Shown one piece after another: positions 2,777 to 24,150 of a DNA stretch of 64,000 bases. Position 1 is the first letter of the stretch. Each line of letters begins with the position of its first letter. The DNA is from Bythopirellula sp. (GTDB lineage Bacteria > Planctomycetota > Planctomycetia > Pirellulales > Lacipirellulaceae): positions 2,304,001 to 2,368,000 of the forward strand of contig OZ244170.1 of assembly GCA_965216565.1 (NCBI GenBank), written 5' to 3'. Below the pieces are notes generated by a model that had not been told where the DNA came from, ran no database searches, and worked only from the letters and a program-made list of their open reading frames with translations. Position numbers and translations under genes: made by a program.

Positions 2777-2905
2777 GTCCCTCTCCCCTTTGGGGAGAGG
2801 TTAGGTGAGGGGCTTCTGCGTATGAGAACGGCCTCAGCAAAGAAACGTAATATCGTATAACAAATTCAACCCTCTCCTAACCCCTCCATTTCAAGGGAGA
2901 GGGAT
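2777..2905. repeat. REP/REPIN-like pair of inverted GC-rich palindromic units
   Basis: GTCCCTCTCCCCTTTGGGGAGAGGTTAGGTGAGGGG (2777-2812) and a near reverse complement CCCTCTCCTAACCCCTCCATTTCAAGGGAGAGGGA (2870-2904), between serA and serC. Confidence 0.7.
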
Positions 2906-2910
2906 GCGAG

Positions 2911-4005
2911 CTAGGAATTCTGGCCGCGGAAGCGGACCATAAAGTCTCTGAGTGTCTCCGCGCCGGCAACCGGCATGGCATTATAGATCGATGCGCGGAT
3001 GCCGCCTACCGAACGATGTCCCGCCAGGGCCACCATGTTCTCACCATCGGCCTCGGCAACGAATTTTTTAGTCAGCTCATCGCTGGGCAGACGGAATACC
3101 ACATTCATCAACGAACGAGAGTCTTCGTCCGCATGGCATTCATAAAAACCTTCGCTGGAATCGACCGCATCGTACAGCATCTTCGCCTTAGCCTGATTCT
3201 GCTGGTGCATCTTCTCCAGCCCGCCGATCTCATTCTTCAGCCAGTCCGTTACTAAGCGCACCACGTAGATGGCAAACGTGGGGGCGGTATTCATCAGCGA
3301 ACCCGCCTCGGCATGGACACGGTAATTCATGTAGCTGGGCAGTTCGTCGCGACTCCGCTCAAGTAAGTCTTTACGCATAATCACAATCGTCACGCCTGCC
3401 GGGCCGATGTTCTTCTGGGCACAGGCGTAGATCAGTCCGTAGCGATTTATGTCCAGAGGCTTGTAGAGCAAATCGCTAGAGGCATCGCACACCAACGGCG
3501 CGTCGCCACCGGTTGGCTCGTCGGCAAACTGAACACCTTGAATGGTTTCGTTGGAAGTGTAGTGCAGGTACGCGGCATCGGACGTGTGTTGAATTTCTTC
3601 GGCCTTGGGCACCCGCGTGTAGTTGGAGTCGCTACCGTCCCAAACGACCTTGGCTTCGCCTTCCTTCTTGGCTTCCTTCAGTGCGTGTTTTCCCCACGAC
3701 CCGGTCAGCAGATAATCCGCGCCGGAGTGTTGGTCCTGGAGCAGGTTTTGGGGGATCATCGAAAACTGCAGCCGGCTACCTCCCTGAATAAACAGGACGG
3801 CATAGTCCTCTGGGATCGATAGCAGCTCGCGCAAATTGGCCTCCGCCGCCCCGATGATCTCCTTAAAAGTCGCACTGCGATGGCTGATTTCCATGACCGA
3901 AGCACGCGCTGCGGGCAACGCCATCATTTCTTTTTGCACCTGGGCCAGCACCGGCTCTGGCATGGCGGCGGGTCCGGCCGAGAAATTGAAGGCTCGTTGA
4001 GTCAT
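2911..4005 (-). CDS. serC: Phosphoserine aminotransferase
   Basis: FNFSAGPA, SHRS, NETIQG, AQKNIGPAG (PLP lysine) and GHRSVGGIRASIYN. Confidence 0.98.
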   Translation of the reverse strand: MTQRAFNFSAGPAAMPEPVLAQVQKEMMALPAARASVMEISHRSATFKEIIGAAEANLRELLSIPEDYAVLFIQGGSRLQFSMIPQNLLQDQHSGADYLLTGSWGKHALKEAKKEGEAKVVWDGSDSNYTRVPKAEEIQHTSDAAYLHYTSNETIQGVQFADEPTGGDAPLVCDASSDLLYKPLDINRYGLIYACAQKNIGPAGVTIVIMRKDLLERSRDELPSYMNYRVHAEAGSLMNTAPTFAIYVVRLVTDWLKNEIGGLEKMHQQNQAKAKMLYDAVDSSEGFYECHADEDSRSLMNVVFRLPSDELTKKFVAEADGENMVALAGHRSVGGIRASIYNAMPVAGAETLRDFMVRFRGQNS

Positions 4006-18321: not shown

Positions 18322-19111
18322 CTAACAAATCCAACGATTAGAGGGACCAATTAGGGCCAGCAAGGGCAATAGAAGTATTCCTAGATTCGGCTCGGGCACT
18401 GCGGACAGGTTTGGAGTGAGCGGTATGCCCGTTCCAAATTCTTGCTGCCAGTCCAGAAAATCCAATCCATTGAGGTCCACTCCATAGCGAGCCTCCCAGC
18501 CAAGCGTTGGATGCGTGAGATCATTTGAATCGACATCACCATCGCCATCAAAATCCGCTTTTAAGTTCTGGAACAGAAATAATCCGCTGTCTCCATTGGT
18601 GAAGTCGACTGAAAACAGCAGATTGCCCAAATCGTTTAAGGCGGTAGGACTGCCGTCGTTTCCACCTGAGCCGCCTACGAAATCGAGTGACGCGATCGTT
18701 CGACCCGCCAGATTATCGCCCTCCTGGGCAATCAATACACCTGCTCCTCCTGAGTCCATCAGCCACAATCCCGAGTCGTTGCTGGCCCCCACCGCACCGC
18801 CAAGCTGTAAGGAAGCTTTCAGTGCGATCTGACCGGCAGAGTTTAATACATACTTTTCAAAATCGTCGAAGCTGGCCCCCACAATGCCAGGCACGCCTGC
18901 ACTTCCACTACGGGCAATTTCGTTTGATGTAACGCCATCAAACGACCAGATTCCACGGCTGTCGCTGGCTGTAACTCCTCCCACACCAGCCACAAGTTCA
19001 CCATGGACGATAACATCTCCGCTATCACTCAATAGAGGAGTCTCGAACGACTCAAAATCAGCATCTGCAATCCCCGGCACCCCTCCCGACCCCGTTTGTG
19101 CAATCCGTTCC
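18322..19111 (-). pseudogene. 3' half of an IS-interrupted PEP-CTERM protein with NxxGxxAF-type repeats
   Basis: Repeats (LNSAGQIA, LNDLGNLLF), ADFDGDGDVD..DFLDWQ and VPEP plus TM segment. Joins in frame with 23011-24007 once the IS is removed. Confidence 0.9.
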
Positions 19112-19277
19112 GGCACTGGTAACCTTCCGTGTGGGATTTCTTCGTATTCCCCGTGATTCCCAGCCGTTGGCGGATTGTTTGCATTTTATTCCGCTAGCAA
19201 TGCTATAGTACCAATTGCGTTGGCCTGGACTTGGGGTGTCTATCACGCAACAATTCCAATCCGCTCTAACTCCCCAA

Positions 19278-19336: not shown

Positions 19337-19507
19337 TTAGGCGTACTGGATCAGCTTCCATGTCACGGCTTTACCATTGTATGGGGGCATCACATTGCCC
19401 TCTGCAATGGGTGCAGTTGTGGATGGCGTACCTTCCACTTTCCACACTCCGCTCTCTGGACATCTTTGACCAGTAGTCGCTGTAGTGCCTATCGGTTTTT
19501 TGCTCAT
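19337..19507 (-). CDS. 56-aa small protein (YjzC-like TGQxCPxSGxW motif); absent from the ORF track
   Basis: Translated by hand: MSKKPIGTTATTGQRCPESGVWKVEGTPSTTAPIAEGNVMPPYNGKAVTWKLIQYA. AAGGAG RBS upstream, terminator downstream. Confidence 0.8.
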   Translation of the reverse strand: MSKKPIGTTATTGQRCPESGVWKVEGTPSTTAPIAEGNVMPPYNGKAVTWKLIQYA

Positions 19508-19541
19508 CTCAAACAAACTCCTTTAAAAAAGAGGAAAAAAA

Positions 19542-19811
19542 GTGGCCAGCTTCGGACTAATAAAGCCCTTCGACATCGACCACGGGGAACTCGATGGACT
19601 CCGCCAACAAGATTGTTTTGTCCTTGGCTATGAACTTGCTCAGATCGACCAACTGCTAAAGCAGCCAGAGTCCATCAATAAACCAGTTCACGCTGACAAC
19701 AATAATCGTATAAAAAAAGCCTGTGTCGAATCTGGTCGCCAATACAGCTTGACGTGGATGTCCGGTGACTCGTCAGAGTCATGGATGCATCTTCAAGTTG
19801 ACGGCTTGTAA
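19542..19811 (+). CDS. Hypothetical IS passenger protein (89 aa)
   Basis: GTG start with GAGG upstream; globular composition; divergent from the 56-aa ORF. Confidence 0.6.
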   Translation: MASFGLIKPFDIDHGELDGLRQQDCFVLGYELAQIDQLLKQPESINKPVHADNNNRIKKACVESGRQYSLTWMSGDSSESWMHLQVDGL

Positions 19812-20092: not shown

Positions 20093-21037
20093 TTAGTTTG
20101 CGGCATTTATCAGCAATTCTCCAACACCCCAGGCTTTTTCTGTCAAACCAGCGGCCATTGCTGGGGTCTCGCCTAGCGAGTCATGCTTGCGAGCAAAGTT
20201 GTAGTAGCAGAGATAGATTGCTTGCATGGCCTTGTGATGCTCTAGGCTCTTGCTGTGGGCATTCGTGAGACGGGTGAACCGTCGCAGATGCATTCTATAC
20301 TTCTGGTTGAAGGATTCGATATGGCTCGTGCAGACGTTCTCTTGCTTGGGGTTACCGTAAACAGCTTTCTTCTCAGAGTTTATTATCGTGGCCGGGCTGT
20401 AGCGGGTCTGCGTTTGGGTAGATGCGTAGTTCTTGACGATCTGGCCATAGTCTACCCGATTGCCGAAGGTGAACGGCACGTTGTTGGTGTAGGTCGATAG
20501 GCCGTCAGTGGACAGTTGGAAGCGGCCAGCGGTCGCACGGTCTAACTTCTCCAAGAATCGAACAGTGGTTTCGCGATCCCGGCCACCAATCTCATAGGCC
20601 AGAACCATTTTCGTATTCCGCTCGATTCCAAGAAACGTCCAGGAGTCGCCGTACTCTTCCCCGTAGCCATTGGCTTGACGGGTTTTTTCTTTACAGCCAA
20701 CGAAGCTCCAGATTTCATCGGCCTGCACGTCCTCAACTTCGATGTCGCGTAGGCTGTTCATCAGGCGTTCGCAGTTGTTGCCGACTGTGAGAATGAGATC
20801 GGCCAGAGTTTGACGGCAAAGGCCGGTCACACGCTGTACTGAGCGAATCGACATGCCCTCTAGCAACAGGGAGATAGCGGTAGCGGCTTGCTTGATATCG
20901 GTTCGCATGGCCCCTAGTGGGCTCTCTGGCTTGTCAACGAAAGTCTTGCCACACAGCGAGCACTTCAAACGGGGGTGACCTTGACGGTCTTTCCCGTGTT
21001 TGTGGCAATTTTCGTGTTGGCAGGCGGTTACTATCAT
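20093..21037 (-). CDS. IS1-family transposase (single ORF)
   Basis: N-terminal Cys cluster (C..C...CSLC), HTH (GMSIRSVQRVTG), DDE residues in VQADEIWSFVG, STDG and HIES, plus RRFTRLTNAHSK and TPAMAAG. Confidence 0.92.
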   Translation of the reverse strand: MIVTACQHENCHKHGKDRQGHPRLKCSLCGKTFVDKPESPLGAMRTDIKQAATAISLLLEGMSIRSVQRVTGLCRQTLADLILTVGNNCERLMNSLRDIEVEDVQADEIWSFVGCKEKTRQANGYGEEYGDSWTFLGIERNTKMVLAYEIGGRDRETTVRFLEKLDRATAGRFQLSTDGLSTYTNNVPFTFGNRVDYGQIVKNYASTQTQTRYSPATIINSEKKAVYGNPKQENVCTSHIESFNQKYRMHLRRFTRLTNAHSKSLEHHKAMQAIYLCYYNFARKHDSLGETPAMAAGLTEKAWGVGELLINAAN

Positions 21038-21047
21038 TGTTCTCTCG

Positions 21048-21118
21048 TTGATTTCAGTATACTTTAATCAAACGAGGGCTGCAATAGATTAGGGTTGATT
21101 TTTGGAAACTTTTATCAA
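21048..21118. promoter_or_regulatory. Two TTGAT-N14-ATCAA palindromic operator-like sites between divergent genes
   Basis: TTGATTTCAGTATACTTTAATCAA (21048-21071) and TTGATTTTTGGAAACTTTTATCAA (21095-21118). Confidence 0.6.
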
Positions 21119-21128
21119 ATAATCTGGC

Positions 21129-21320
21129 ATGGCTAAGAAAGCAACAAAACGGGGCGGAAAACGCCCAGGCGCAGGACGACCCGCCAAAGCCCCTAGCGAG
21201 AGGCGAGATCAGGTCTTTTCCGTCAAGCTGACTGCTGACGAGAAGAAGCTACTAGACGATACAGAGGCGCGCACGTGGGCACGCGACGTATTGCTACGAT
21301 CCGCTCGCAAGAGACAGTAA
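21129..21320 (+). CDS. Small basic DNA-binding protein (AT-hook-like RGGKRPGAGRP plus possible ribbon-helix-helix)
   Basis: Basic tail, then strand VFSVKLT and two helices; divergent from the transposase. Confidence 0.7.
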   Translation: MAKKATKRGGKRPGAGRPAKAPSERRDQVFSVKLTADEKKLLDDTEARTWARDVLLRSARKRQ

Positions 21321-21321
21321 G

Positions 21322-21412
21322 CGGAGAGTGGGGGAGTCGAACCCATCCGATGGACGGACCCCTAGCACAGTGTATAAGGCTGCTGCATCAACCGAGATGC
21401 GGGCCGCTCTCC
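21322..21412 (-). ncRNA. tRNA-like (degenerate class II, tRNA-Ser-like) sequence, TAT at the anticodon position, no CCA
   Basis: Acceptor GGAGAG/CTCTCC+G; D-like stem GCATC/GATGC; anticodon arm GCAG..CTTATAC..CTGT; variable hairpin TCCG/CGGA; GGG-TTCGACT-CCC T-arm. Confidence 0.6.
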
Positions 21413-21499
21413 AGAGTGGCCCAAATTCAGATGCTAAAATCGCAATGTATTCATGGCGTCCACTAGACTTGAATACTGGAACAGAGGTTCACTGCAAGA

Positions 21500-21769
21500 T
21501 CAGGAGGGTAGCTCTGTGGAGATGTACGAACCTGTGATCCTCGTTATAAAATGCTCTCCCTGGTGTTCGCAGTAATCAACATTCAGCGCAGCAGTCCATG
21601 CCCTGCCTTCATGGGTGCATGTGATTTGAATGTGCACAGGAGATGATTTAGTTGTAGAAGAGATAACTGAGTCAATTCTTTCAGCAAAAATAATGCGGAT
21701 GGCCTCAGGCACATCCGCATCATTGCTAAAAAACTGCTCAATTGTCCTAAGAAGCCATTGAACGTTCAC
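21500..21769 (-). CDS. Hypothetical IS passenger protein (89 aa)
   Basis: Overlaps the stop of the upstream ORF, suggesting translational coupling. Confidence 0.5.
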   Translation of the reverse strand: MNVQWLLRTIEQFFSNDADVPEAIRIIFAERIDSVISSTTKSSPVHIQITCTHEGRAWTAALNVDYCEHQGEHFITRITGSYISTELPS

Positions 21770-22025
21770 TCATAAATTCCTTTAAGGACGTAAATTCCTT
21801 TCGTTCAATGCACTCTTGGATGTCTTGAATCTCGCCAGTGTCTATTTCCATAGACTCAGAGAGAGACTCTAGAACCTTGTAGACACCAACATTGATGTCT
21901 TCTAGGGTCAAGTGACCCGTACCCGAAGACTGCATATATGCTTCCAGCCATGCCGTCAACTGGCGACGGATGGTTGGCTCATACGCGCGTAGGATTCTCT
22001 TGGCATCAAGTGGAATTGTAGACAT
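21747..22025 (-). CDS. Hypothetical IS passenger protein (92 aa, acidic C-terminus)
   Basis: ATG start MSTIPLD; helical composition. Confidence 0.55.
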   Translation of the reverse strand: MSTIPLDAKRILRAYEPTIRRQLTAWLEAYMQSSGTGHLTLEDINVGVYKVLESLSESMEIDTGEIQDIQECIERKEFTSLKEFMSERSMAS

Positions 22026-22312
22026 TTTAATAACCCGTGAGAGATTGCTTACATGCTGTACCGATACTCCATTAACCGCTATCGGCTGCGGCACTCCCCA
22101 ATATTTAGAACGCAACAGACGCTCAAAAGTTCGCTAAACAAAGAAAAGCCCCGCAATGTATAAAGCTTAGGGACCATTGTCAATCCATAGTTGGTCGGCA
22201 CCCTAAGTCTAGAATGGCAAGCGAGTTGTGTCAATAATAGAGTTGGTGGATTGTGACAAATAAGTGATACATCCGACCGAAAGCATTGGCATAACAGGAT
22301 TTATTGCTAGCA

Positions 22313-22936
22313 CTATTCTCCCGCAGGGGTGCCAAGGTTACCACTACATATAGTCCAACCGGACACTTCGGATCGGATAAACCGCCGTGGATTTGCATGA
22401 AGGGATTTCCTGACGCACCGCAGAACCTTCCCCGGATCGTCCTCGGCACGACAGCCCAACGCCTGAATTGCTACTACTAGCTCTGCTGGCTTCATACCCT
22501 TCGACCCCTCTAGCACCTCTGCGATGACATCCGACATCGGCATCACGGCATAGGGAGGGGCGGCAGTGTCGTTGTCGAAAGTGACCCAGAGAATATGCCC
22601 CTTGTCGTCCTTGGCAATCCGCCTCAGTTCCTTGCGGTCGGCGAGGGTATAGACAGCAGCTTTGACGGACCCACGATTCCAGTGGCGTTCTGGCTCAGCA
22701 GCTTGGAGAATCTCAAGCACTTCACGATTCGAGAACGGACGATCACGGGGCATAAACTCACGCACCGCGTCTATGGCCGTCTTGCGAACTCTCAAGCCTG
22801 GTTCTGGCTCGTCGCCTAGTTCGCGTCGCAGTGAGTTGATCTTGTCGCAGGTGTCCCGGTACTCTTTGCGCGCCAGCGTGATTGCTTTATCAAGTTTTTC
22901 CGCTGCCTGTTTCTTTAGTAGTTCGTAGGCGTCCAT
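22313..22936 (-). CDS. Hypothetical IS passenger: coiled coil plus two putative winged-helix domains
   Basis: N-terminal heptads; FSNREVLEIL..GSVKAAVYTLA and MSDVIAEVL..MKPAELV patterns. Confidence 0.65.
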   Translation of the reverse strand: MDAYELLKKQAAEKLDKAITLARKEYRDTCDKINSLRRELGDEPEPGLRVRKTAIDAVREFMPRDRPFSNREVLEILQAAEPERHWNRGSVKAAVYTLADRKELRRIAKDDKGHILWVTFDNDTAAPPYAVMPMSDVIAEVLEGSKGMKPAELVVAIQALGCRAEDDPGKVLRCVRKSLHANPRRFIRSEVSGWTICSGNLGTPAGE

Positions 22937-23010
22937 GCCCAAGATGGTAGAATGATCGGAGGGGCTAGCAAGTGGGTCGATTAAATCCCACACACTAGGT
23001 TACCAGTGCC

Positions 23011-24007
23011 TCCGTTCCCCAGTGGTTCCTGTATAGAGCCAGATGCCTTTGTCGTTGGTCGAGCTGATTGAGCCAGCGTGGGTAAGTTCTGAATAGAATG
23101 CCAACTGATCAATACCATTGATCACCGGGTCGCTCAATTCCGTAAAGTCAGTCGAGGCCACGCCTGGTACCGCACCAGCCCCTTGGCGAGCAATCACATT
23201 TCCACCCAACGGGGAATACTTCCAGATCCCGATGAAGTTGGTCGAATTGATACCACCCCCTTGTACTAAACTTGCTCGGAACGCAATCTGTTGATCGTCG
23301 TTGATGGTTGGGCCAACGAAATTATTGAAGATGCTTGATAGATCGGCAGCGACCGTTGTGTTCTCGCGTGCTAAAAGTGTCCCGCCCAATGCGTCGTAAG
23401 TCCAAATGCCACCATCGTCGTCTGAGGTTACGCCTCCCGTCGTGGCAAGCGAGGCATCGACTGCAATCTGGCCGATATCGGAAACATGTAAACTGTTCGG
23501 TAGGAAGTCAAATACTCCGTTAGTGACGCCAGGAGCGGCAGAATCCCCAGTACGGACGACAAGTGAATCGCTGCCAGAAAATCTCCAGATACCTTCACGG
23601 TTGGAAGCGTCCACCCCGCCACTGCCCGTCTCAAGAGAACCACGCACGAACACATCCCCAGCATTGCTAACAGAAAGGTCTCGAAATAAATCATAACTCG
23701 CACCGGCAACCCCTGGGACGTTTCCCGAACCCTGGCGGGCAAGCAACGAAATACTCCCTTGATCGAAGCTCCAGATACCATTTGCATCGCCAGATACGAC
23801 TCCGCCAACGCCGGTCTGAAGTTGTGCAGGGAAAGCAATGGTGCCACTATTATTGATGACTCCGGCTTCGAACGTATCAAATAACCCGCCCGCTACTCCC
23901 GTGGCCGCGTCGCCCGACACGGCAATTGTTGTTACCGTAGCGTGGATAGGTTCACTAAAATATGTAGATAACAAGAGAACGAGCCAAAGTGATTTAGAAT
24001 AAGACAC
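23011..24007 (-). pseudogene. 5' half of the IS-interrupted PEP-CTERM repeat protein
   Basis: Signal peptide, then repeats (INNSGTIAF, INDDQQIAF, INGIDQLAF, GIW). Ends WLYTGTTGER at the target duplication. Confidence 0.9.
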
Positions 24008-24150
24008 AAACGATCTCGCTTTGGGACAGACAACAAGATGAGTATAAGGTCGATATGTTCGAGGAATACCCAATCTAACGGCCAGCAGGAAGGAATGCAA
24101 AAATTTGCACTCAAATCGTGCGCATCGCTTTTACTGATGGGTAGATTCTC

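Follow-up and report, generated by a model that had tools for sequence, protein, structure and literature searches.

The window analysed here is a 64,000-nucleotide stretch of a Bythopirellula sp. contig, and the genes of interest lie within an IS1-family element of 3,899 bp that has 33-nt terminal inverted repeats (TIRs) and an 8-bp target duplication. Its insertion split a DUF7453 gene, whose two parts now occupy positions 18322-19116 and 23000-24100. Inside the element, passenger genes are followed by a tRNA-like RNA gene, a convergent 63-aa open reading frame (ORF) and the IS1 transposase, which is encoded on the same strand as the RNA:

19104..19111, unstranded: 8-bp target-site duplication (sequence)
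19112..19144, unstranded: TIR, listed as the transposase-distal end (repeat analysis)
19337..19811, unstranded: two small passenger ORFs downstream of the transposase (ORF list)
20093..21037, minus strand: IS1-family DDE transposase with D107, D178 and E241 (PF03400, NF033558, invariant columns, model)
20381..20386, minus strand: tandem ATA codons 218-219 of the transposase, whose other ATA codons are 2 and 310
21047..21119, unstranded: putative divergent promoter region; two related 26-nt repeats (21047-21072 and 21094-21119) are candidate operators
21129..21320, plus strand: 63-aa RHH-like regulator ORF, convergent with the RNA, its stop abutting the RNA 3' end
21322..21412, minus strand: 9/3 allo-tRNA-like gene with UAU anticodon, G73, long variable arm and extra helix, CCA not encoded
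21360..21403, minus strand: extra 3-bp helix around the D and anticodon arms, 21403-21401 with 21362-21360 (RNAalifold unaided, covariation)
21374..21376, minus strand: anticodon UAU, which would read AUA (sequence; conserved in the family)
21413..21422, minus strand: 5' leader with potential to pair with the 5' acceptor strand, a possible folding switch (pairing excess family-wide, covariation not seen)
21500..22993, minus strand: three passenger ORFs upstream of the RNA, with no family above cut-off
22978..23010, unstranded: TIR (repeat analysis)
23011..23018, unstranded: 8-bp target-site duplication (sequence)

The transposase scored 104.8 bits against NF033558 (cut-off, 100) and also matched PF03400; a fold search with it returned generic DDE enzymes only, and Planctomycetes came first among its neighbours in named genomes. 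In its DDE transposase, TIRs, 8-bp duplication and cargo, the element resembles the IS1 passenger elements covered by NF033558. The 63-aa ORF gave weak profile matches to NikA, CopG and antitoxins (E 0.08-0.4) and a two-helix monomer model with a low pTM of 0.28, and its TAA stop starts two bases past the RNA discriminator. We found no plasmid match to the stretch and no empty-site joint in one study's contigs, which are identical to the stretch and possibly its source. As the preliminary description had already held, the RNA is not an integration site for this element; we rejected such a use because the TIRs and target duplication enclose it.

The same genome holds a second copy of the RNA, 74% identical and with the same neighbours (G000 C1:4675639-4677049; L001, L142). 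Besides the RNA, this second cassette has an RHH-like ORF and an IS1 transposase whose reading frame is interrupted by two TGA stops.

A conserved tRNA-like RNA and its cassette

The preliminary description had reported a 91-nt tRNA-like gene with a UAU anticodon, a G discriminator, a long variable arm and no CCA, lying inside an IS1 element. The sequence is as quoted there, and all of these features are present in the window copy. Two of the checks proposed with it, ARAGORN and Rfam, gave little on the single sequence: ARAGORN made no call, and Rfam returned only tRNA-Sec (RF01852; 25.8 bits, E 0.09), below the gathering threshold of 47. The single-sequence folding z-score was -1.25. We rejected tRNA-Sec identity (UCA anticodon, 13-bp branch) on the Rfam score, the host's own tRNA-Sec sitting elsewhere, and tRNA-Ile(UAU) identity on the discriminator, which is G73 in the RNA and A73 in the host Ile tRNAs; host tRNA-Ser genes end in G73.

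As single-sequence tools are weak, the case is carried by homologues, which we gathered by BLAST of 401 genomes of the class, by pattern scans (28 metagenome and 4 viral stretches) and from transposase-selected loci. They confirm that the RNA is a real, conserved tRNA-like gene. Of the 151 genomes examined from the order, 52 contained matches to a covariance model built for it (R1), with E below 1e-5 in 47 (its own genome included) and as many as six matches in one genome. The model matched 8 of 151 genomes in a class-wide draw, and in a phylum-wide draw it gave a strong match in its own genome only, with 17 weak matches besides. About a third of the sampled genomes of the order thus hold an RNA gene of a kind that standard tRNA callers miss.

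Thirty homologues aligned without structure, an alignment not fitted to the model, gave a 9-bp acceptor, a 5-bp D stem, a 4-bp anticodon stem, a variable stem and a 3-bp T stem, and RNAalifold on the same alignment added a helix pairing nt 10-12 with nt 51-53. This agrees with the covariation in the 91 matches from the order, where, in an alignment fitted to the model, paired cells amounted to 89.7%, 24 of 27 pairs showed changes on both sides and none of 500 shuffles reached the real level. The extra helix showed both-side changes in 3 of 3 pairs in an alignment not fitted to it. Two contacts absent from the model also covary, one joining a D-loop G to C56 of the T loop (2 swaps) and the other joining U54 to A58 (12 swaps), indicating that the tRNA elbow is under selection. 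The 91-nt cloverleaf of the preliminary description therefore stands, with one change to its partition into stems: the window RNA has a 9-bp acceptor with a single mismatch at pair 7, a T stem of 3 bp and the extra 3-bp helix.

Counts on the family use the 83 matches of at least 59 bits, with 8 weaker ones of the 91 dropped. The acceptor branch is of the 9/3 type (12 bp), pair 9:82 being standard in 73 of 83 copies and an alternative fourth T pair occurring in 6. The D stem, which in the allo-tRNA definition is long, tRNA-Sec-like and capped by a tetraloop, has 5 bp and a 5-6-nt loop holding UGG, a sixth pair not being regular; the variable stem of the long arm covaries; and acceptor pair 7 is mismatched in 59 of the 91 matches. 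The anticodon stem has four firm pairs, with the fifth unpaired in 42 of 91, and is not longer than canonical, unlike the allo-tRNA definition. The loop sequence UUAUA is kept in 73 of 83 copies and G73 in 78, while CCA is encoded in none. Among the 82 copies with at least 800 nt downstream, UAU is intact in 74, a conservation that is possibly somewhat overstated because the pattern used to select part of the training set included the anticodon, although variants were found nevertheless. We rejected a -10 promoter box in place of the anticodon, as the last base varies. Upstream of the RNA, 30 nt pair with its 5' strand at -13.6 kcal/mol, compared to -9.1 and -9.7 kcal/mol for controls; a Shine-Dalgarno sequence of the opposite-strand gene is not needed to account for this, the effect being present in both orientations, and no covariation of the leader with the RNA's own 5' strand was found.

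The RNA is a new structural and taxonomic variant of the allo-tRNA(UAU) class, which was published in 2017 by Mukai et al. without a function (PMC5389517; also covered in the available part of the review PMC7609411). It shares with that class a 12-bp acceptor branch, a short T stem, a long variable arm, G73, UAU and stem mismatches. The published UAU rows inspected are of the 8/4 type, and the available text has no UAU among 9/3 forms (PMC5389517), whereas the planctomycete RNA is 9/3 with a covarying extra helix. The same paper mentions "possible five-stem-junction structures", and its figures, S5 on junction forms among them, may depict a similar extra helix (PMC5389517). A search of its whole supplement for signature motifs of the planctomycete RNA gave no match among the allo-tRNA rows. 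UAU genes of an 8/4-like form, similar to the published rows, are present in eight distinct transposase-selected loci, most of them titled as Acidobacteria.

Around the RNA, a cassette recurs. An RHH-like ORF converges on it in 56 of 83 loci, with the stop at +1 or +2 in 43. Among the 78 loci whose flanks are sufficient, all of them picked by the RNA alone, 51 have an IS1 transposase 100-900 nt downstream on the RNA's strand. Where flanks are long (26 loci), TIRs and 8-bp duplications surround the cassette in 15. The upstream passengers vary and include HigB, ParE, Panacea, IrrE, GmrSD and DUF3800 families, most of 80 ORFs being without a match. A transposase is adjacent to 2 of 8 copies with a changed anticodon, compared to 50 of 74 others. 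From the transposase side the link is limited, with the UAU RNA in 10 (9 distinct) of 88 transposase-selected loci. In L101 and L121, the RNA gene does not abut IS1; a tyrosine-integrase-like ORF adjoins it instead, and use as an attachment site is possible there. In L093 and L111, the adjoining transposase is one that we take, from its sequence, to be IS4-like rather than IS1, and an RHH ORF is present in L111.

AUA codons in linked transposases

We labelled 167 distinct transposases as linked or unlinked to the RNA, partly by hand and leaving 9 unlabelled, and compared a segment (residues 196-238, the 43 residues before the catalytic Glu) that was defined after the data were seen. In the planctomycete and metagenome set, an in-frame ATA falls in the segment in 58 of 59 linked and 1 of 20 unlinked transposases, and the sole unlinked carrier, L266, proved on inspection to have a degenerate UAU tRNA. 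In other phyla, the counts were 8 of 8 linked and 16 of 71 unlinked. ATA makes up 18.6% of Ile codons in 43 linked transposases and 25% in the acidobacterial linked set, compared to 7.6% in unlinked homologues, and it is the most enriched codon in linked transposases, the rare A-ending codons TTA, AGA, ACA and GTA being depleted in the 43-gene set. The excess is local: ATA accounts for 126 of 245 Ile codons in the segment and 24 of 633 outside it, or, by reference residue, for 163 of 288 at 200-239 and 0 of 327 at 100-199. By reading frame, the segment holds 126 ATA triplets in frame and 16 and 25 in the other two. This in-frame bias, together with the lack of enrichment of GTA, CTA and TTA, led us to reject a DNA motif as the source of the pattern.

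ATA positions differ between transposase subgroups, and linked transposases are only about 30% identical to each other. In the predicted model (mean pLDDT, 90.6), the ATA sites map to two strands (195-204 and 218-227) and to residue 235, shortly ahead of the helix that carries E241. Their columns are Ile/Val sites, averaging 1% Ser and 68% I/L/V/M in homologues; Ser is absent from all six main hydrophobic ATA columns, while four minor ones (203, 222, 225 and 229) are polar, with Ser in some homologues. On these averages we rejected a reassignment of ATA to Ser in a functional transposase. Two loci collected afterwards and the genome's second copy had ATA at 203/218/219, as predicted, and the second-copy transposase has it at the same positions 2, 218 and 219 as that of the window.

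On a FastTree tree, the RNA is confined to three transposase clades. All three contain the ATA cluster, with positions differing from one to the next, and it is all but missing in the RNA-free clades that separate them. Among independent pairs, 2-4 of 7 went in the predicted direction and none against (p 0.25), or about 3 for and 1 against at a threshold of two ATA; these phylogenetic contrasts for the link between the RNA and ATA are non-significant. L040, L047 and L010 keep an ATA cluster with no UAU RNA nearby. When the genomes of five ATA-rich, RNA-negative elements were searched for an RNA acting in trans, one (that of L067) had a clear UAU gene, the other matches reaching 55 bits or less.

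At column 218, 62 of 67 linked transposases have either ATA (27) or Met (35). ATG density in the segment is about twofold higher in linked transposases (93 of 2904 codons) than in unlinked ones (66 of 4021); UAU might also read AUG, or the ATG excess might be a clade effect.

Candidate roles of the RNA

That the anticodon is fixed while its stem covaries freely, and that the matching codons cluster in frame, suggests a decoding role. The acceptor carries serine-type marks, with G1-C72, G2-C71, A3-U70 and G73 jointly present in 72 of 83 copies. According to the available part of PMC9976931, serine identity depends on the variable arm with the anticodon ignored, and the discriminator is a strong Ile determinant; G73, the long variable arm and a variable base 38 do not suit IleRS. 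In elements that lack this form, another UAU body often occupies the same spot near the regulator, these being both 7/5-like long-arm G73 forms (L257, L270, L272, L277 and L280) and short-arm G3.U70/A73 alanine-type forms (L245, L276 and L228), and the synthetases matching the marks of these alternative bodies do not read the anticodon (PMC11028032, available part). We saw no synthetase gene in the cassette. With tilS and three CAT tRNAs, the host requires no additional AUA reader, and AUA is its second-rarest sense codon (7.6% of its Ile codons). The serine marks, the TilS-bearing host, the alternative UAU bodies and the Ser-free columns together favour mis-cognate reading over a private Ile decoder and the other roles weighed below.

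We therefore lean, tentatively, toward a reading in which the element's tRNA, likely charged with Ser, puts Ser at AUA Ile sites and so damps the element's own transposase. Two of the roles listed in the preliminary description, a tRNA mistranslating AUA as Ser and a transposition-related RNA, would on this basis combine into what is our best, still provisional, account. Every step from transcription to mis-insertion is proposed on comparative grounds. The RNA would be transcribed from upstream, released by RNase P, trimmed at its 3' end and given CCA; host SerRS, ignoring the anticodon, would charge it; and at AUA the charged RNA would compete with the lysidine-bearing tRNA-Ile2 of the host. 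The transposase would then be inactivated by Ser at 235 or within the predicted beta-hairpin (195-227). Alternatively, the odd shape of the RNA could stall the ribosome at AUA sites, with the same sign of effect. A stable, diffusible tRNA could act on all copies in trans and would be absent in a newly entered cell, and the RHH protein would probably add a further layer of regulation at the divergent promoter. For the host this would come at little cost, since AUA is its second-rarest codon.

Several observations count against this mistranslation reading. The extra helix, the 4-bp anticodon stem and the pair-7 mismatch give the RNA an odd shape that may bar it from ribosomes. The association involves three clades only, some clusters occur without the RNA (L040, L047 and L010), the minor columns are polar and the segment was chosen post hoc. 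The chief published evidence against it comes from six allo-tRNA(UAU) species converted to amber suppressors: in E. coli, not one of them rescued CAT Ser146, a reporter that depends on Ser or Ala, and two were lethal (PMC5389517); the variants tested were of the related 8/4 type, not 9/3 (PMC5389517).

An unlikely, though better-placed, rival is that the AUA cluster brakes transposase synthesis and the element tRNA relieves the brake by delivering Ile or a tolerated residue. A precedent for such relief is bldA of Streptomyces, a normal host tRNA-Leu that gates TTA codons and acts positively; it too ties a rare codon in chosen genes to one tRNA, whereas the tRNA considered here belongs to the element, has an abnormal shape and is probably mis-cognate. 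The same codon-anticodon link would be expected, the ATA sites read Ile/Val in homologues, and in the published negative test the anticodon had been replaced, a change that would have removed Ile identity. The body of the RNA nevertheless does not suit IleRS, the same anticodon sits on alanine-type bodies and the host has TilS. Moreover, rescue by Ser is unlikely at Ser-free columns, and ATA-rich transposases exist with no RNA nearby.

Less probable still is a role in which the RNA delivers no amino acid but pairs with AUA or is bound by proteins that handle tRNA. Ribosomes would then stall or drop off ahead of the catalytic Glu, or a cargo toxin that cuts tRNA would be titrated. The extra helix, short anticodon stem and acceptor mismatch would suit such an RNA, as would the inactivity of the amber variants, and the passengers include HigB, ParE, Panacea, IrrE and GmrSD families. 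However, the conserved SerRS-type acceptor marks would have no clear use, and a toxin decoy leaves the AUA cluster unexplained. The passengers also vary by element, with no single toxin family accompanying the RNA, and we found no evidence for the decoy or antitoxin against tRNA-targeting toxins that the preliminary description had entertained.

We consider it improbable that the RNA is a mild toxin or anti-phage device mistranslating AUA-rich foreign genes, with the AUA cluster as an unrelated clade trait such as a translational pause. The independent clades are few, AUA is rare in the host and the two lethal amber variants would fit, but a transposase encoded alongside such a tRNA would be expected to lose its AUA codons rather than accumulate them, and the cluster recurs in all three RNA-bearing clades at differing positions and hardly at all in the RNA-free clades between. 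Very improbable is a non-decoding role, whether as a signal for processing or insulation or as a captured tRNA in decay: CCA is absent in 83 of 83 copies, the RNA lies right beside the RHH stop, its leader has the potential to pair with the acceptor and Mukai et al. labelled one such gene a pseudogene (PMC5389517), yet the anticodon is fixed while the surrounding stem covaries freely and processing (the RNase P/Z signal of the preliminary description) needs no particular anticodon, and the selection on stems, elbow contacts, anticodon and acceptor identity speaks against a pseudo-tRNA or decayed capture.

Under the mistranslation reading, an IS1 group may, on a somewhat more guarded estimate, regulate itself through the genetic code, with AUA codons planted next to its own active site and Ser- or Ala-marked tRNAs on several bodies directed against this rare host codon. 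The result would be a codon-addressed repressor acting in trans on very divergent elements, from which a naive cell, or destruction of the tRNA, would bring release. If the mistranslation reading is true, a mobile element would be using mistranslation deliberately to control gene activity. A functional parallel is RNA-OUT of IS10, a trans-acting RNA repressor that pairs with the ribosome-binding site. Like RNA-OUT, this RNA would be a diffusible limiter of transposase, but it would act via a codon and across transposases about 30% identical. The tRNA-ProX RNAs of Streptomyces, mistranslating tRNAs with a dedicated synthetase, ProRSx, likewise occur naturally in bacteria and combine a body proper to one amino acid with an anticodon proper to a different one; they differ in having ProRSx and, in the available part of the source, no known codon-marked target, whereas the candidate target here is the element's own transposase (PMC11415595). 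A link of allo-tRNA(UAU) genes to mobile elements or toxin-antitoxin systems has been suggested and one overlap with a transposon-related ORF described, but that paper reports neither a fixed IS1 cassette nor an AUA cluster (PMC5389517). Our literature search, outside which most subscription papers fell, found nothing tying allo-tRNA(UAU) RNAs to IS1 transposases or AUA clusters, and nothing on transposon-encoded tRNA or on IS1 combined with a rare codon and a tRNA. With the present analysis the allo-tRNA(UAU) class gains a fixed home, the IS1 cassette, and a candidate target, the AUA codons before the catalytic Glu.

Other odd tRNA-like genes turned up during the survey. The 7/5 tRNAs of L116, L118, L128, L134, L137, L139 and L140, some on viral contigs, have UAU, a long extra arm, A73 and an encoded CCA and are probably true Ile(UAU) tRNAs; the set was chosen by a search pattern, and its shared anticodon arm is so by construction. 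Irregular tRNA-like genes with other anticodons lie beside IS1 transposases that have no UAU RNA (L056:3671-3759, L057:3217-3300, L059:3666-3748, L068:569-639, L028:3366-3433, L019:642-714, L045:3881-3952 and L029:3774-3846), and no cognate codon cluster was seen for these eight; more broadly, no other odd anticodon was matched by a codon cluster in 11 loci. Stop-reading anticodons (CUA, UUA) occur upstream of IS1 transposases at L010:3325-3400, L032:3754-3839 and L039:2723-2810, with no matching in-frame stop in L010 or L032. Finally, two odd tRNA-like genes occur together within one element in L228 (about 2850-3096), L245:4011-4170, L042:2317-2484 and L244:5290-6484; in one example, a UUA form that would read ochre precedes a UAU form with a short arm and alanine marks.
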